Below are positions 3,980 through 46,711 of a stretch of DNA of 64,000 nt, piece after piece. The position numbers and the translations under genes are program-made. The stretch is taken from the NCBI RefSeq assembly GCF_965641715.1, contig NZ_OZ282453.1. The stretch is one strand, 5' to 3'. This stretch comes from Escherichia coli (GTDB lineage Bacteria > Pseudomonadota > Gammaproteobacteria > Enterobacterales > Enterobacteriaceae). Numbering within the stretch: position 1 is the first letter of the stretch; each line of letters begins with the position of its first letter. The notes beneath the pieces are model-generated. The model was not told where the DNA came from and did not search any database. It was given only the letters and a program-made list of their open reading frames with translations.

Positions 3980-4771
3980 ATGGCTAACGCAGATCTGGAT
4001 AAACAGCCTGATTCTGTATCTTCCGTGCTAAAAGTTTTTGGCATTTTGCAGGCGCTGGGTGAAGAGCGCGAAATAGGGATAACCGAGCTGTCACAGCGCG
4101 TCATGATGTCAAAAAGCACCGTTTATCGCTTTTTACAGACCATGAAAACCCTGGGTTATGTAGCGCAGGAAGGGGAGTCGGAGAAATATTCGCTGACCCT
4201 GAAATTGTTTGAACTGGGCGCTCGCGCGTTACAAAACGTTGATTTAATTCGTAGCGCAGATATCCAGATGCGTGAGATCTCCCGCCTGACCAAAGAAACT
4301 ATCCACCTCGGCGCACTGGACGAAGACAGTATTGTTTACATCCATAAAATTGACTCTATGTACAATTTGCGCATGTATTCACGGATTGGGCGTCGTAATC
4401 CACTGTACAGCACCGCGATTGGTAAGGTACTGCTGGCATGGCGCGATCGCGATGAAGTGAAGCAAATTCTTGAGGGCGTGGAGTATAAACGCAGTACCGA
4501 GCGGACCATCACCAGTACAGAAGCGTTATTACCGGTTCTGGACCAGGTGCGCGAGCAGGGGTATGGCGAAGATAACGAAGAGCAGGAAGAAGGGCTGCGA
4601 TGCATTGCGGTTCCGGTATTTGATCGCTTTGGCGTGGTCATTGCCGGTTTGAGCATCTCCTTCCCGACGTTGCGTTTCTCTGAAGAGCGTTTAAAGGAAT
4701 ATGTCGCAATGTTGCATACTGCAGCGCGCAAAATTTCTGCACAAATGGGTTATCACGACTATCCGTTCTGA
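3980..4771 (+). CDS. kdgR: IclR-family transcriptional repressor KdgR
   Basis: 263-aa ORF with N-terminal HTH and IclR effector domain; recognised as KdgR. Confidence 0.9.
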   Translation: MANADLDKQPDSVSSVLKVFGILQALGEEREIGITELSQRVMMSKSTVYRFLQTMKTLGYVAQEGESEKYSLTLKLFELGARALQNVDLIRSADIQMREISRLTKETIHLGALDEDSIVYIHKIDSMYNLRMYSRIGRRNPLYSTAIGKVLLAWRDRDEVKQILEGVEYKRSTERTITSTEALLPVLDQVREQGYGEDNEEQEEGLRCIAVPVFDRFGVVIAGLSISFPTLRFSEERLKEYVAMLHTAARKISAQMGYHDYPF

Positions 4772-4780
4772 TGAGAGTAA

Positions 4781-4818
4781 GAACCTGTCGGAATATCAAA
4801 CAGACAGGTTCTTTATTT
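4781..4818 (+). terminator. Intrinsic terminator after kdgR
   Basis: 9-bp stem GAACCTGTC/GACAGGTTC, 13-nt loop, followed by TTTATTT. Confidence 0.65.
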
Positions 4819-4914
4819 AGCATGAGAAAAATAAAGTTGAAGGTGGCGTTATATTAAACGCGCTTGCTATAAGAGTATTTTACTCATGAGTGAGAATCTG
4901 GTTATTTATTACAC

Positions 4915-5154
4915 TTAACCATTATCGACCACGATATTGCTTTTGCGTAACAGCGGGCAATCTGTTATCCCCAAAAAACCACTTTTAGTGTGCAAGTATT
5001 GTACCGTGCTGGTGCCTCTGGCAGTCAGATAGGTACATTGCAAACCTAATCCTGCGGCATTCTCTTTGCTTCCAATCAAAACGCCATATCCGCTGAGTAA
5101 TAATCCTATCCATACCAGTGCTATCAGCATAACTGTGCGAATGATGAATCGCAT
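4915..5154 (-). CDS. yobH: Small membrane protein YobH
   Basis: 79-aa ORF MRFIIRTVMLIALVWIGLL... with signal/TM segment; matches position between kdgR and mgrB. Confidence 0.75.
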   Translation of the reverse strand: MRFIIRTVMLIALVWIGLLLSGYGVLIGSKENAAGLGLQCTYLTARGTSTVQYLHTKSGFLGITDCPLLRKSNIVVDNG

Positions 5155-5312
5155 TACAACCTCTTCTCTTTTTATGTTCGCTTAATCGTAGCGGCAATAT
5201 GCGCTGAAGCAAGCGACTCATTCCGAAAAAGCACGAATATCGACATAGTTAGGCGCTGTTTAACTAACGCATGCTAGTTTAATGACATAAGGTAGGTGAA
5301 ACGGAGATTGGA

Positions 5313-5456
5313 GTGAAAAAGTTTCGATGGGTCGTTCTGGTTGTCGTGGTGTTGGCTTGCTTGCTGCTTTGGGCGCAGGTATTCAACATGATGTGCGATC
5401 AGGATGTACAATTTTTCAGCGGAATTTGTGCCATTAACCAGTTTATCCCGTGGTGA
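5313..5456 (+). CDS. mgrB: PhoQ-inhibitory small membrane protein MgrB (47 aa, GTG start)
   Basis: Manual translation from GTG at 5313: [47 protein letters not shown]; below the 60-aa cutoff of the ORF track. Confidence 0.85.
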
Positions 5457-5530
5457 TATCATTTTTTCAGCACTAGATTTTCTTCCTCTCCAGCAGTGGT
5501 AGAATAGCGCCTCTACTCAGAGGTGGTGAA

Positions 5531-5818
5531 ATGAACGAAGTTGTAAATTCAGGCGTGATGAACATTGCGTCTTTGGTTGTATCGGTGGTGGTTCTTCTTA
5601 TCGGGCTCATCTTGTGGTTTTTTATTAATCGTGCCAGTTCTCGGACTAACGAACAGATTGAACTGCTTGAGGCGTTGCTGGATCAGCAAAAACGTCAAAA
5701 TGCACTGTTACGTCGTTTGTGCGAAGCAAACGAACCAGAGAAAGCAGATAAAAAGACCATTGAGAGTCAAAAATCGGTTGAAGACGAAGATATTATTCGC
5801 CTGGTCGCCGAACGATAA
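5531..5818 (+). CDS. yebO: Small membrane protein YebO
   Basis: 95-aa ORF with one N-terminal TM helix and charged C-terminus. Confidence 0.8.
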   Translation: MNEVVNSGVMNIASLVVSVVVLLIGLILWFFINRASSRTNEQIELLEALLDQQKRQNALLRRLCEANEPEKADKKTIESQKSVEDEDIIRLVAER

Positions 5819-6487
5819 TCCTTCCTCAATCTTGAGTAACCCCGTCGTTGAAGGGTTACTCAATTCATCCTGATTATACGCACTGTCATGGTGCAATTGC
5901 TTCAAATTAAAACTCTGGTCTGACTTCAAATAATTATCATATTATTTATTTGCGTAACGGGATATCAGAAAAAGATATTTACCTCATTAATTTATTAGGA
6001 TGTTTACATCGGATTTGTGATTAAGCGTGGTATTATTTATTAGCGAAACGTTTCTCTCTTGATTTTTTTGCTCACTCATCAATTTTTCTTATTTTAAATT
6101 TACAATCCCTTTGGGGATTGACTTCTCTTTAGGGTAATTGATAGCCGTTAACTGACTGTTTTATGAGAAAAAGTGATATAACTTTTTATTCATTGCATAG
6201 CAGAAAATGTGATATTGCACGCACTATGTAATAACTTCTCCCACTGGCCTGGAACAACTGAACTTATTGAACTATGTTAGAAACTACGCCAGTTTAAGTA
6301 TCTGCCTGAACTGGCAAGGTTAAGCACAATGATATATCGGCGCGTATTCCGTTGCATAAGTGTGCAAAAAAAGTGGAAGACGTATCGAGATTTGTGCGTC
6401 TGATCGAGACATGTTTAAAAATGGCTTGCCATAATTAACGTTGTATGTGATAACAGATTTCGGGTTAAACGAGGTACAGTTCTGTTT

Positions 6488-6631
6488 ATGTGTGGCATTT
6501 TCAGTAAAGAAGTCCTGAGTAAACACGTTGACGTTGAATACCGCTTCTCTGCCGAGCCTTATATTGGTGCCTCATGCAGTAATGTGTCAGTTTTATCTAT
6601 GTTATGCCTGCGGGCGAAGAAAACAATCTAA
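6488..6631 (+). CDS. yobF: Small protein YobF (47 aa), co-transcribed with cspC
   Basis: Manual translation [47 protein letters not shown], ends 12 bp before cspC start. Confidence 0.75.
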
Positions 6632-6643
6632 GGAATTTTTCAA

Positions 6644-6853
6644 ATGGCAAAGATTAAAGGTCAGGTTAAGTGGTTCAACGAGTCTAAAGGTTTTGGCTTC
6701 ATTACTCCTGCTGATGGCAGCAAAGATGTGTTCGTACACTTCTCCGCTATCCAGGGTAATGGCTTCAAAACTCTGGCTGAAGGTCAGAACGTTGAGTTCG
6801 AAATTCAGGACGGCCAGAAAGGTCCGGCAGCTGTTAACGTAACAGCTATCTGA
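6644..6853 (+). CDS. cspC: Cold-shock-domain protein CspC
   Basis: 69-aa [40 protein letters not shown]... with RNP1/RNP2 motifs. Confidence 0.95.
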
Positions 6854-6898
6854 TCGAATCCACTGATCTGAAGTGTGAATACGCTTCAATCTCGCTAT

Positions 6899-6925
6899 AA
6901 AGCCTCGTCGAATGCGAGGCTTTTT
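6899..6925 (+). terminator. Intrinsic terminator after cspC
   Basis: Stem AAAGCCTCG/CGAGGCTTT, 7-nt loop, followed by TTTTT. Confidence 0.8.
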
Positions 6926-7018
6926 ACTATGCTTTATCTTCGCTCCTGGCGTTCGGATATTTGCCCGCCGCGTGATTCGCGTTACACTTGCGGCCTTTAG
7001 TATCCTGCCGGAGTTGTC

Positions 7019-7828
7019 ATGTCGTTTTCCTGTCCACTTTGCCATCAGCCTCTTTCGCGTGAAAAAAACAGCTATATCTGTCCCCAACGACATCAGTTTG
7101 ATATGGCGAAAGAAGGGTATGTCAATCTGCTGCCCGTTCAGCATAAACGGTCTCGTGATCCGGGCGACAGCGCGGAAATGATGCAAGCACGCCGCGCATT
7201 CTTAGATACCGGACATTATCAGCCGCTGCGTGATGCAATTGTCGCCCAACTGCGGGAACGGCTTGATGAAAAGGCCACGGCGGTGCTGGATATTGGCTGT
7301 GGTGAAGGGTATTACACACACGCATTTGCCGATGCGTTGCCCGAAATCACCACGTTTGGTCTGGATGTTTCGAAGGTAGCGATAAAAGCGGCGGCGAAAC
7401 GCTATCCGCAGGTCACTCTTTGTGTCGCTTCCAGCCACCGTTTGCCGTTTTCCGATACCAGTATGGACGCCATAATACGTATTTACGCGCCGTGTAAAGC
7501 AGAAGAATTAGCACGAGTAGTGAAGCCCGGCGGCTGGGTCATTACTGCCACGCCGGGACCGCGACATTTGATGGAGCTGAAGGGGCTGATTTACAATGAA
7601 GTACATCTTCATGCACCTCATGCAGAACAACTGGAAGGTTTTACATTACAGCAGAGTGATGAGTTGTGTTATCCGATGCGTCTTCGCGGTGATGAAGCCG
7701 TCGCATTATTGCAGATGACGCCGTTTGCCTGGCGTGCGAAGCCAGAAGTCTGGCAAACACTGGCAGCAAAAGAAGTGTTCGACTGCCAGACGGACTTTAA
7801 TATTCACCTCTGGCAGCGTTCTTATTAA
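7019..7828 (+). CDS. rlmA: 23S rRNA m1G745 methyltransferase RlmA
   Basis: 269-aa ORF with N-terminal Cys4 zinc ribbon (CPLC...CPQRH) and SAM-binding motif DIGCGEGYY. Confidence 0.9.
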
Positions 7829-8394: not shown

Positions 8395-8625
8395 AACGTC
8401 CTGACCGGGGTATCCATAAAACACATCATCGCCCCCAGCAAACATGCATACATGAACAACAAGCCGCGATGGTTTTTCGCGTTCATGCAGGCATAGCGAT
8501 TGATGTGCATATGGTCTCGCCTGACTGAAAGTCTTCAGTCCGTACGTGCCACGTTTTGCAACGAGTATGTTGACACGTACATTTCCGGAATCTGGAAATT
8601 GGCTACTCCCCAAATGAGGGCGCAA
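8395..8625 (-). promoter_or_regulatory. mntP 5' leader, probable yybP-ykoY (manganese) riboswitch
   Basis: Long leader upstream of mntP; minus-strand RNA contains GGGGAGUAGCC (8601-8611 on plus strand as GGCTACTCCCC) and GAGACC (8513-8518) consistent with conserved riboswitch elements as I recall them; E. coli mntP is known to carry this riboswitch. Confidence 0.55.
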
Positions 8626-8820
8626 CCTTAACATATTTTGAGAATATAAAACAACTGTTGGAATATATTATTTTATTGCTTTGTTGATAACGATTTTCAT
8701 TTAGATTTATATATCAATGAAACGTTAAAATAAATAACAAATAAGGGAAGAGGTAATATAGCCTAAGCTATGTCTGATTATTAAAAATACACTAAACATA
8801 GCTTTGGCTAAATTAATAAC

Positions 8821-43793: not shown

Positions 43794-45269
43794 TTAAATA
43801 TGATGAATAATCACTTTGTTGCCCCCCTCGCTTTTCGCTTCGCGTAAGGCTTTATCTGCTTCCGTCATGACAAGCGAGATATTACGCGTGTCACCCGTTG
43901 AAAAAACCGTGCCAATACTGATGGTCATTTGTTCAGGAACATCATATCTGTTACTAAAGCCGGTCAGGAGTTCGACATTTTTACGCATACGTTCCGCAAT
44001 GATTTTTGCCTGGGCACTATTGAGTTCGGTAAATAGCAAGCCAAACACCTCACCCTCCAGTCGCGCTAAAATATCATCGGGGCGGATGCTTTGCTGGATA
44101 ATATCGACAATTGAAACCAGCACTTTATCACCCACACGATGTCCCCATTGGGCATTGATGCGTTTGAACTGATTAATATCAACCAGCATGACACAGAAGT
44201 CCTTAACAACAGGTCGCGACAATAATGACTCTACGCTGTTGAAAAAGTAGCGCCGATTGTAAATATTGGTCAGCACATCATGAACTGCCAGTTTGCTGGA
44301 GAGTTGCAGCTCCTGAAAAATGTTATAAATCAGAAAAGACACAACAAACAGTTTACTGGAGACTTCAATCCCGCGACTGATATACCAGATGGTATAATTA
44401 TACTCATCCAGAGTCAGTAGAAGTAAGTTGCAGCATAGCGATGCCAGACATAATAATGCTATTAACGGCCATAGTTCGCTGGCTAATCGTGTACGCATGA
44501 TAATAAAGAACAGTAAAAATGCCCACAGACAAACCAATATTTTTGTATAGTTGATTCCCCAGGTCGCAGTATGGTTGTCCGGACAGTAATCGACGACATA
44601 CAAAGAATAGTCAGCGTTATAACTGCTCAGATTGTGTGCCAGAAGGGGAAAAACTAAAAAAGGAATCAGCGCCAGCAACAGAATGCCAGTTTTTTTCTTA
44701 TTGTTGTCAAGGATGTTGTCTTTTCCATAACAAAAGAGCGCCAGCGAGGTTAAACAAATAAAACTGAGTTGGCGGAAAATATAGAAAATAGAAACATCAT
44801 TCGACTTTGTCTGGATCAGTGTACTGCCGTTAATTGGTTTATGGATAATTACAATGGTTTCAACTAAATAGATAAGGCCACTTAAAAATGCAAGGCTTAA
44901 AATGAGTGTTGGTAAAATTTGTTTGTTAGTGAAATATTTCATTAACATGAAAAGAAAAATGACGGCGTTAAGGAAAAACAAAGCCACAACAACCATCAGG
45001 TAATTCATCTGTGGGATGAGTTTTACATTTGTGTTTTCGTTATATAAGGTAGTAATGCAAAATAAAATTAACGTCAGCAATAAACTGAAAATAAAAAAGC
45101 TTTGAGCTTTTAATTTTTGTGTACCCATAGAAACCATAAAAAGGAGAGCAATGTGAGTGCTGGATTTTATTGATGGCAGAGATATATGGTTTTGACCAGG
45201 ATCAATTTTCGTTAACGATAAAAAATATTTAAAGAATAACCCCATGGAAATACGTGTTGACTGAATCAT
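43794..45269 (-). CDS. yeaI: Degenerate GGDEF-domain membrane protein YeaI (CdgI)
   Basis: 491-aa ORF with multi-TM N-terminal domain; GGDEF signature degenerate to EGEVF (RLEGEVFGLLF). Confidence 0.8.
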   Translation of the reverse strand: MIQSTRISMGLFFKYFLSLTKIDPGQNHISLPSIKSSTHIALLFMVSMGTQKLKAQSFFIFSLLLTLILFCITTLYNENTNVKLIPQMNYLMVVVALFFLNAVIFLFMLMKYFTNKQILPTLILSLAFLSGLIYLVETIVIIHKPINGSTLIQTKSNDVSIFYIFRQLSFICLTSLALFCYGKDNILDNNKKKTGILLLALIPFLVFPLLAHNLSSYNADYSLYVVDYCPDNHTATWGINYTKILVCLWAFLLFFIIMRTRLASELWPLIALLCLASLCCNLLLLTLDEYNYTIWYISRGIEVSSKLFVVSFLIYNIFQELQLSSKLAVHDVLTNIYNRRYFFNSVESLLSRPVVKDFCVMLVDINQFKRINAQWGHRVGDKVLVSIVDIIQQSIRPDDILARLEGEVFGLLFTELNSAQAKIIAERMRKNVELLTGFSNRYDVPEQMTISIGTVFSTGDTRNISLVMTEADKALREAKSEGGNKVIIHHI

Positions 45270-45415
45270 TTTTCCGAATGATTGTTTTCTGGAACTAAAT
45301 TATGTAAAGGTTATGCTGTCATATTTAAAGCGATTGTAAGCTAATGTATGTAATAAATGAGATAATTTACAGTAAGCTAAAAATCAGCCAGGCGATAATG
45401 ACCCGGCTGATAGTT

Positions 45416-46711
<1,296 letters not shown>

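Follow-up and report, generated by a model that had tools for sequence, protein, structure and literature searches.

The 669-bp gene-free spacer upstream of yobF-cspC in Escherichia coli (5819-6487 of the window, the whole 64-kb stretch of DNA that was analysed) very probably comprises the last part of the mgrB-yebO transcription unit and, after it, a layered control region for yobF-cspC, and is not a gene. The mgrB-yebO transcript terminates at a hairpin, its 3' end lying at 5866/7, and the next ~170 bp, very AT-rich and restricted to Escherichia, would be silenced, promoter-like filler. Regulatory information would reside in four islands conserved over 80 Enterobacteriaceae loci from more than 20 genera, with Islands 2-4 at fixed distances from the yobF ATG. 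Island 1 holds a half-conserved LacI-family (RbsR-like) palindrome and a promoter-like pair that is present in other genera and degenerate in E. coli. A CRP site lies ~70 bp upstream of the distal sigma-70 promoter in Island 2, which would give rise to a ~200-nt leader, Island 3 would be a site 134 bp before the yobF ATG, and Island 4 would contain a pair of extended -10 promoters that overlap and initiate at ~6440 and ~6461. RpoN holoenzyme would compete with RpoD holoenzyme at Island 4, and the sRNAs OxyS and CyaR would target its short leader. Direct or literature support comes from the 3' end at the terminator, in vitro binding of RpoD, RpoN, CRP and H-NS, Salmonella start-site data, and conservation; our inferences are the precise positions of the E. 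coli starts, silencing by H-NS in vivo, and whatever Islands 1 and 3 may do. The promoters of the spacer and its binding by CRP, RpoN and H-NS have been published before, and the discovery is therefore minor; the conserved RbsR-like palindrome is the sole new lead and, judged from its sequence, possibly a new element.

The spacer and the end of the mgrB-yebO unit

The left part of the locus contains the following features.

5531-5818, + strand: yebO, the left flank of the spacer
5832-5867, + strand: terminator of yebO and of the mgrB-yebO transcript, 11-bp stem TTGAGTAACCC / GGGTTACTCAA
5869-6039: AT-rich stretch, 30% GC, which aligns within Escherichia only (three other lineages)
~5885: IS1A insertion in clinical strain 361
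5907-5934, + strand: promoter-like hexamers TTAAAA-16-AATAAT, from a scan
5968-5941, - strand: promoter-like hexamers CTGATA-16-AATAAT, from a scan

An earlier note on this DNA had described a long gap without genes between yebO and yobF-cspC, strongly AT-rich and with homopolymer runs, and its coordinates, flanks and composition are all correct. Among the 54 gaps between genes in 50 kb of MG1655 the spacer ranks first in length, ahead of two of 428 and 421 bp. Its GC content is 35.4%, against 48.9% for the whole window, and falls to 25-30% across 5869-6102; equally AT-rich 669-bp windows make up only 1% within the 64 kb. The homopolymers include T7 (6063-6069), A7 (6366-6372) and five runs of 5. 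The + strand of the window corresponds to the minus strand of MG1655 (MG1655 coordinate = 1914079 - window coordinate), where the equivalent spacer is also 669 bp long, differs by 6 SNPs and no indels, and contains no annotated feature in RefSeq. All but three of 5426 complete E. coli genomes (5423) contain the spacer, 95-100% identical, and this near-universal presence places it in the core genome. None of 20 genomes sampled from the 5423 with a match has a native gene under it, and one of the 20 carries an IS1 transposase within it.

The mgrB and yebO genes are reported to be carried on one transcript, and the hairpin just downstream of yebO folds at -15.5 kcal/mol (z = -3.8), with none of 200 shuffles as stable. 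Term-seq places the primary yebO 3' ends at MG1655 1908212/1908213, or window 5867/5866 (Adams 2021 supplement). H-NS genomic SELEX flags the spacer as a whole, in vitro support for the earlier suggestion of a nucleoid-protein binding region.

Proximal and probable distal promoters of yobF-cspC

The right part of the spacer and the operon that follows it contain these features.

6205-6225: CRP site aaaTGTGAtattgcACGCAct, centred ~70 bp upstream of the putative distal start
6250-6278, + strand: Island 2, distal promoter, TGGAAC (6250-6255), 17-bp spacer, TATGTT (6273-6278)
6285-6487, + strand: putative long distal leader, ~203 nt
6350-6368: Island 3, cGCATAAnTGTGCAg, at least 90% conserved positions in alignment A1 (40 leaders)
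6388-6487, + strand: Island 4, proximal promoters and short leader
6406-6435, + strand: promoter b from a scan, GAGACA (6406-6411), 18-bp spacer, TGcCATAAT (6427-6435), putative start 6440
6426-6454, + strand: promoter a (Shimada 2014), TTGCCA (6426-6431), 17-bp spacer, TGtGATAAC (6446-6454), putative start ~6461
6416-6431, - strand: sigma-54-like -24 element TGGCAAGCCATTTTTA, read by eye
6471-6474, + strand: Shine-Dalgarno GAGG
6468-6928, + strand: match to the cspA thermoregulator (RF01766), 136.7 bits against a gathering threshold of 78, E = 2.4e-36
6488-6631, + strand: yobF, the right flank of the spacer
6644-6853, + strand: cspC, 3' of yobF

The proposal in the earlier note that the spacer holds promoters and a long leader of yobF-cspC agrees with published promoters, RpoD peaks, and Salmonella start-site and fusion-primer data. 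One promoter, TTGCCA-17-GATAAC, and two RpoD-holoenzyme peaks were described in the spacer (Shimada 2014). By genomic SELEX the peaks fall at ~6335 and ~5873, the latter (old coordinate 1906230, in vitro) adjoining the AT-rich stretch; promoters yobFp1 and yobFp2 are cited in a 2026 paper. The same authors name both the yobF and the cydA spacer as multi-promoter spacers (Shimada 2014). Like the yobF spacer, the 847-bp cydA spacer is long, lies between co-directional genes, and has multiple RpoD-holoenzyme peaks and an H-NS site. The two differ in that five cydA promoters have been mapped individually, whereas the far-upstream yobF peak has no assigned transcript. Counting against the control-region model, one preprint reports no activity of a yobF upstream reporter under low Mg2+.

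Binding of CRP upstream of the distal promoter is documented in vitro: a Footprint-seq table gives agTGCGTgcaataTCACAttt for yobF at MG1655 1907867, and yobF is on the CRP genomic-SELEX target list. This sequence is the reverse complement of that in the window, and coordinate mapping places its centre at 1907864. Compared with TGTGA-N6-TCACA, the dyad has a perfect left half (TGTGA), conserved only in Escherichia, Salmonella and Citrobacter, and a right half (ACGCA) that agrees at 3 of 5 positions. Conservation of Island 2 extends to 72 of 76 loci, and its -10 element lies 200-212 nt before the yobF ATG. In other genera it reads TGGACG-17-TATGGT, and the E. coli hexamers are weak (7/12), with a poor -35 (3/6). 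Transcription in E. coli would start at ~6285. In Salmonella 4/74 a start site is reported at 1893683, with Tn5 insertions in the 5'UTR (1893502 and 1893511) and in cspC (1893137), coordinates compatible only with a leader of 181-390 nt. This indirect evidence, from Salmonella only, supports a ~200-nt leader from the conserved distal promoter, the one candidate that the start site fits. The first ~65 nt of the leader vary in sequence and hardly in length (A1), and in 54 of 60 loci Island 3 and the yobF ATG are separated by exactly 134 nt.

Identity over the 80 loci is 83-99% in Island 4, higher than in the yebO coding sequence, and the island includes 60 invariant columns of A1. The primer of a Salmonella yobF::sfgfp fusion begins GTTGTATGTGATAAC, equivalent to 6440, at the proximal promoter. 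An in vitro RpoN-holoenzyme peak (old coordinate 1905652, ~6451) was read by its authors as repressive. On nitrogen depletion, yobF and cspC mRNA fall 7.4- and 6.5-fold, with a smaller drop in an rpoN mutant. The minus-strand sequence TGGCAAGCCATTTTTA (6431-6416) departs from the sigma-54 consensus (-24 GG and -12 GC, 10 bp apart) in having TT in place of the -12 GC. A reported target of both OxyS and CyaR is yobF, and OxyS pairs near its Shine-Dalgarno.

The RF01766 match spans the last 20 nt of the spacer, yobF, cspC and the cspC terminator, and it recurs in five other genera. The covariance model of the cspA 5'UTR aligns end to end through cspC and its terminator, and its first position, 6468, is ~7 nt downstream of the putative promoter a start; together the alignment and the start position support a common origin of csp promoter and leader. 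In contrast to cspA, the yobF-cspC 'leader' holds a translated 47-codon ORF (yobF), and 640 bp of control DNA further upstream are without counterpart in the cspA model.

Alternative readings of the spacer

Four further elements bear on the question of whether the spacer contains a gene of its own.

6103-6120, + strand: hairpin CAATCCC-TTTG-GGGATTG with tail ACTTCTCTTT, 7 pairs, 4 of them G-C
6163-6231, + strand: small ORF
6329-6403, + strand: small ORF inside the leader
6277-6357, - strand: small ORF

An independent sRNA, for example from ~6043 or ~6102 up to the 6103-6120 hairpin or from the other strand, is very unlikely. The hairpin, whose sequence is exactly as the earlier note gave it, forms with its tail the sole terminator-like pattern that a pattern scan finds in 5700-6950, with 0.9 expected by chance. 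The minimum-energy fold of the + strand RNA nevertheless bypasses it (z = -1.5, 15 of 200 shuffles as stable), a stability that is not significant; the - strand RNA at the hairpin folds at -9.2 kcal/mol (z = -2.2). The structure is specific to E. coli, being absent from E. albertii and the two other Escherichia lineages compared, and Term-seq detects no RNA 3' end there in three growth conditions (LB OD 0.4, LB OD 2.0 and M63-glucose). It is not detectable as a terminator. The only Term-seq 3' ends in the region are at 5866/7, 6600 and 6926, with none on either strand in MG1655 1907479-1908212 (window 5867-6600). Term-seq covers LB and M63-glucose only, and transcripts specific to other conditions would therefore escape it; an RNA repressed by RbsR, for instance, would be silent in these media. 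Promoter-like hexamers exist on both strands, their three matches set against 3.9 in shuffled sequence, and an sRNA would accommodate a sigma-S-preferred in vitro RNA seen with an opposite-strand probe of the spacer. Searches of Rfam 15 across 4500-7500 (E <= 10) return the cspA match and noise only, and those in five other genera (E <= 0.1) return the same cspA match and no sRNA family. The comparative structure search that the earlier note had suggested, RNAalifold on the 40 leaders of A1, gives -7.6 kcal/mol and 17 pairs with no compensatory change (covariation term -0.05). The inverted repeat of Island 1 is often broken, again without consistent compensatory change. The published opposite-strand RNA is, for its part, not explained by the control-region model.

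An unannotated small protein, also raised in the earlier note, is extremely improbable. Several ORFs of 20-31 codons are present, and this region, ahead of a highly expressed operon, is transcribed, but none of 14 ORFs of at least 12 codons keeps its start codon and length in all three other Escherichia lineages. Over 60 loci the best candidate, a 26-aa ORF on the minus strand, varies in length between 2 and more than 33 codons; it had seemed conserved within Escherichia and was dropped as not kept across genera. Neither 6163-6231 nor the minus-strand ORF, the two candidates read by eye, is preceded by a Shine-Dalgarno, and gaps between genera in Island 1 are of 1-2 nt, not multiples of three. 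It is likewise unlikely, if less so than either of these, that the AT-rich part is what decay has left of a lost gene, or a horizontal insert silenced by H-NS. Such an origin would suit the H-NS flag and the low-GC segment that aligns within Escherichia alone, and in 33 of 80 related loci this very place, between yebO and Island 1, is occupied by the gene for an MBL-fold hydrolase of 331-335 aa. Against it, tblastn with two MBL proteins (E <= 100) finds nothing in the spacer, and loci lacking the gene show no partial matches; a remnant of that gene was accordingly discarded. The segment measures merely ~170 bp, and the near-universal presence of the spacer in E. coli argues against an insert.

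Island 1 and its resemblance to rbsO

Two features define the far-upstream end of the conserved region.

6040-6102: Island 1, conserved in Enterobacteriaceae, consensus A(G/T)CGAAACGTTT..TGCC..GGCA..TGTCAT..TTCATTATTTTGGTGCA
6042-6057: rbsO-like site AGCGAAACGTTTCTCT, 15/16 match to the rbsO core AGCGAAACGTTTCGCT

Island 1 is present in ~70 of 72 loci, and in the 33 loci that carry the extra post-yebO gene it lies ~60 bp after the stop of that gene. In an alignment of 43 sequences less than 90% identical (A2), CGAAACGTTT is invariant and TTCATTATT nearly so; in E. coli the left part alone is well kept. The rbsO sequence was taken from upstream of rbsD in MG1655 and agrees with that in the RbsR-DNA crystal. 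At up to 3 mismatches, 6042-6057 is the single rbsO match in the 64-kb window, where 0.48 are expected at this threshold. Variants in other genera have 1-5 mismatches to rbsO, all in the outer positions and the right half. Downstream of the palindrome these genera have a TTGAGG-17-CATTAT pair at conserved spacing; in E. coli an extended -10, TGgTATTAT (6028-6036, read by eye), lies immediately upstream of it. Several other ideas about Island 1 were set aside. PurR and Cra, compared by hand through their consensus sequences, each match the palindrome at 10 of 16 positions, against 15 of 16 for rbsO. In E. cloacae a promoter on the minus strand that includes the AATAAT of Island 1 is predicted; its -35 is not kept in other genera. 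Looping by fixed phasing, between Islands 1 and 2 or between two GCATAA motifs, does not fit the varying distances. A search of 28 Gb with an 80-nt query, which has little power, found no second copy of Island 1 in plasmids or E. coli genomes.

The sequence match raises the possibility, on balance a doubtful one, that 6042-6057 is a working RbsR operator controlling a third, far-upstream promoter, which would place CspC under ribose control. Transcription from such a promoter would either extend into yobF-cspC or disturb the downstream promoters. This reading adds to the control-region model and does not replace it. It would account for the quality and uniqueness of the rbsO match, for the invariant CGAAACGTTT and the wide occurrence of the element, and for the neighbouring promoter-like sequences in E. 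coli and other genera; in a Salmonella screen, moreover, insertions in rbsR, cspC and the yobF 5'UTR gave the same succinate-growth phenotype. Against this, the right half-site varies (GTTTCTCT, GTTTTTAT, GTTTTGCT), and dyad symmetry is therefore not under selection. The CATTAT and GGTGCA parts are degenerate in Escherichia, both reported RpoD peaks lie away from Island 1, and the distance from Island 1 to Island 2 ranges from 175 to 271 bp. A genomic-SELEX summary counts five RbsR peaks without naming their sites. In Salmonella, overexpressing RpoS suppresses the rbsR phenotype, but the authors conclude that cspC acts independently of RpoS, a difference that argues for separate pathways.

Known operators offer a partial parallel. 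The rbsD region shares the 16-bp core at 15 positions and has a CRP site, and CRP-type half-sites occur near 6042-6057 at 6015-6019 and 6208-6212. However, rbsO, located between the promoter and the start codon of rbsD, is palindromic over all of its 20 bp, whereas in Island 1 only the left half and centre are conserved and the candidate site is 445 bp from the nearest start codon. The GalR operator OE of the gal operon, a LacI-family site, is centred at -60.5, upstream of the -35 element. If TTGAGG-17-CATTAT is a promoter, the centre of the palindrome would lie ~53 bp upstream of its start, in the manner of an upstream operator such as gal OE. The likeness is one of position only: unlike gal OE, Island 1 has no second operator or looping partner, and its promoter is degenerate in E. 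coli.

A base-level map of the control region separates the conserved parts from Escherichia-specific filler and aids the reading of upstream mutations and IS insertions. The global RNA chaperone CspC is encoded at a locus that adaptive mutation hits repeatedly: one in two isolates from aged E. coli colonies carries yobF-cspC lesions, and the locus has also been recovered in Salmonella succinate and virulence screens. More doubtful again is the broader proposal that Island 1 is a conserved module linking sugar sensing to CspC through an RbsR-type operator and a far-upstream promoter. If true, this module would be a direct molecular reason why rbsR and the cspC/yobF leader emerged from one Salmonella succinate screen.

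Position and composition of the spacer

The spacer between yebO and yobF-cspC (5819-6487) measures 669 bp both in the window and in MG1655, the two copies differing by 6 SNPs and no indels. The + strand of the window corresponds to the minus strand of MG1655, with MG1655 coordinates obtained as 1914079 minus the window coordinate, and the MG1655 RefSeq record contains no annotated feature within 5819-6487. GC content is 35.4% in the spacer, versus 48.9% in the window, with a low of 25-30% at 5869-6102. Just 1% of equal-length windows reach this AT-richness, and among 54 intergenic gaps across 50 kb of MG1655 none is longer than the spacer. The long, AT-rich, gene-free gap described in the earlier note is therefore a correct observation and not a chance fluctuation. 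Elsewhere in the window, only ~44.5-45.6 kb (44500-45600) is equally AT-rich over 669 bp (minimum 31% GC), and the intergenic region at 8600-8800 drops to 27% GC over 200 bp.

Of 5426 complete E. coli genomes, 5423 contain the spacer, with identities of 95-100%. In 20 sampled E. coli rows there is no native gene under the spacer, and one row has an IS1 transposase. In the clinical E. coli strain 361 (locus L084, ~667-1435) IS1A is inserted ~65 bp past the yebO stop codon (~window 5885); in the same record the cspC orthologue is called 'cspE' by PGAP.

Conserved islands, promoters and leader

Using YebO as anchor, 80 loci from more than 20 Enterobacteriaceae genera were gathered. The following features are in window coordinates unless a comparison locus is named.

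Genes and conserved blocks of the locus
mgrB, 5313-5456, flanking gene
yebO, 5531-5818, flanking gene
Island 1, 6040-6102, block conserved across loci
Island 2, 6243-6285, block conserved across loci
Island 3, 6350-6368, block conserved across loci
Island 4, 6388-6487, block conserved across loci
yobF, 6488-6631, flanking gene
cspC, 6644-6853, flanking gene
MBL-fold hydrolase gene, L009 3308-4303 (also, for example, L025 3310-4317)

Two architectures are observed. In Escherichia, Salmonella, Citrobacter, Klebsiella, and others, yebO is followed by a spacer of ~440-750 bp and yobF-cspC, while in 33 of the 80 loci a gene for an MBL-fold hydrolase (331-335 aa; Pfam Lactamase_B_2, E = 8e-42) lies directly 3' of yebO, ahead of a spacer of ~520 bp and yobF-cspC. 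No remnant of this gene is detectable in Escherichia (including E. coli), Salmonella, Citrobacter, or Klebsiella; it is a clean presence/absence polymorphism at exactly the site after yebO, and the long region upstream of yobF is therefore kept whatever the left-hand gene. Island 4 is 83-99% identical in all loci, exceeding the yebO coding sequence, and 5869-6039 can be aligned within Escherichia only. Two loci appear mislabeled: L013, titled Chryseobacterium sp., is probably a contaminant contig, since it shows enterobacterial mgrB-yebO-yobF-cspC synteny, and L002, titled E. coli, probably represents another Escherichia lineage, since its spacer is just 75% identical to that of the window.

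Island 2 contains a putative distal promoter, TGGAAC-17-TATGTT in E. coli versus TGGACG-17-TATGGT elsewhere; in 72 loci its -10 element and the yobF ATG are 200-212 nt apart. In Salmonella 4/74 the yobF start site has been placed at 1893683, and Salmonella Tn5 insertions at 1893502 and 1893511 have been assigned to the 5'UTR, and at 1893137 to cspC; arithmetically, these coordinates allow only a leader of 181-390 nt, indicating the distal promoter and not the proximal ones. The long 5'UTR anticipated for yobF-cspC is thus supported by the Salmonella data. For yobF, a 2026 Footprint-seq preprint gives a CRP site, aaaTGTGAtattgcACGCAct (6205-6225), and the inferred distal start is ~70 bp downstream of this site; CRP genomic-SELEX targets also include yobF. 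The first ~65 nt of the distal leader (6290-6350, loci L002-L081) are free in sequence between genera and nearly constant in length, with frequent species-specific GC-rich hairpins, and in 54 of 60 loci exactly 134 nt separate Island 3 from the yobF ATG.

The proximal promoters lie in Island 4. A constitutive promoter, TTGCCA-17-GATAAC (Shimada 2014), occupies 6426-6454 with a TG extension and is overlapped by GAGACA-18-TGcCATAAT. The first base of a Salmonella yobF::sfgfp fusion, in a vector whose inserts begin at the transcription start, is equivalent to 6440, 5 nt past the -10 element of the latter. An RpoN-holoenzyme peak at ~6451 was read by its authors as competition with RpoD holoenzyme; upon nitrogen depletion yobF and cspC mRNA fall ~7-fold, with a smaller drop in an rpoN mutant. 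yobF is a reported target of two sRNAs, CyaR and OxyS, the latter pairing close to the Shine-Dalgarno sequence of yobF. As the Rfam cspA model begins aligning at 6468, the translated yobF ORF lies inside the equivalent of a cspA-type 5'UTR. Nucleotide identity of yobF across genera is 78-95% (10-bp bins), equal to that of cspC, suggesting a constraint on the RNA besides the protein. An abundant Term-seq 3' end at 6600 (MG1655 1907479), inside yobF and 44 nt short of the start codon of cspC, is seen in all listed conditions and may mark intra-operon processing or attenuation.

Terminator, AT-rich stretch and search for hidden genes

The hairpin CAATCCC-TTTG-GGGATTG is present at 6103-6120, as the earlier note had it, and is the sole terminator-like pattern in 5700-6950; shuffled sequence also yields one. 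As RNA its stability is not significant on either strand (z = -1.5 on the + strand, whose best fold leaves it out; z = -2.2 on the - strand). Nowhere is the spacer less conserved than around this hairpin, even among Escherichia, and published Term-seq tables for three growth conditions list no RNA 3' ends between MG1655 1907479 and 1908212. At 5832-5864, by contrast, an 11-bp hairpin folds strongly (-15.5 kcal/mol, z = -3.8), the yebO Term-seq 3' ends in the published tables fall directly past it (5866/5867), and it is the real terminator on the yebO side.

Two RpoD peaks, at ~6335 and ~5873, have been mapped in vitro in the spacer, which was also flagged as containing an H-NS site (Shimada 2014). 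At the far-upstream peak (~5873), both strands of the Escherichia-specific AT-rich stretch bear promoter-like hexamers, and this stretch is probably silenced, promoter-like filler.

Neither an sRNA nor a small ORF, both raised as possible occupants of the spacer, is supported. At a permissive threshold Rfam returns the cspA thermoregulator model only (6468-6928, 136.7 bits), likewise in five other genera; Term-seq in three growth conditions places no 3' end in the spacer beyond those of yebO, and a joint fold of 40 aligned leaders gives a weak consensus with no compensatory pairs. Of 14 spacer ORFs of at least 12 codons, none has both its start and its length preserved throughout the three other Escherichia lineages, and the one that seemed stable within the genus measures anywhere from 2 to >33 codons when 60 loci are compared. 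In a 2011 in vitro run-off microarray, sigma-S-preferred RNA was detected by two probes, IG1905616_1906284-f for the opposite strand of the spacer (2.44-fold) and the cspC-antisense probe c2230 (2.42-fold). This RNA hints at an antisense transcript over 5819-6853 on the minus strand and is left unaccounted for by the present analysis.

A possible RbsR-like operator in Island 1

Island 1 starts with AGCGAAACGTTTCTCT (6042-6057), identical at 15 of 16 positions to rbsO, the ribose-repressor (RbsR) operator upstream of rbsD (TCAGCGAAACGTTTCGCTGA, also the sequence in the RbsR-DNA crystal), and is the only match to rbsO with three or fewer mismatches in the 64-kb window. The element is found in ~70 of 72 loci, and CGAAACGTTT is invariant in 43 sequences of <90% mutual identity; the right half-site of the palindrome, however, is not conserved. 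In genera other than Escherichia, Island 1 continues with TTGAGG-17-CATTAT, at conserved spacing, and TTTTGGTGCA, but this promoter-like part is degenerate in Escherichia, both RpoD peaks lie elsewhere, and Island 2 is at a variable distance of 175-271 bp. Insertions in rbsR, cspC, and the yobF leader share one succinate-growth phenotype in a Salmonella screen, although the rbsR effect acts via RpoS and that of cspC is RpoS-independent according to the authors. Genomic SELEX with RbsR selected five sites. A functional link to RbsR is unlikely, and the RbsR-like operator is the sole new lead from the spacer.

The finding is real but ordinary: one operon's terminator precedes a multi-promoter, regulator-site-rich control region and the leader of the next operon. 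Most parts of the spacer have already been described in the literature.
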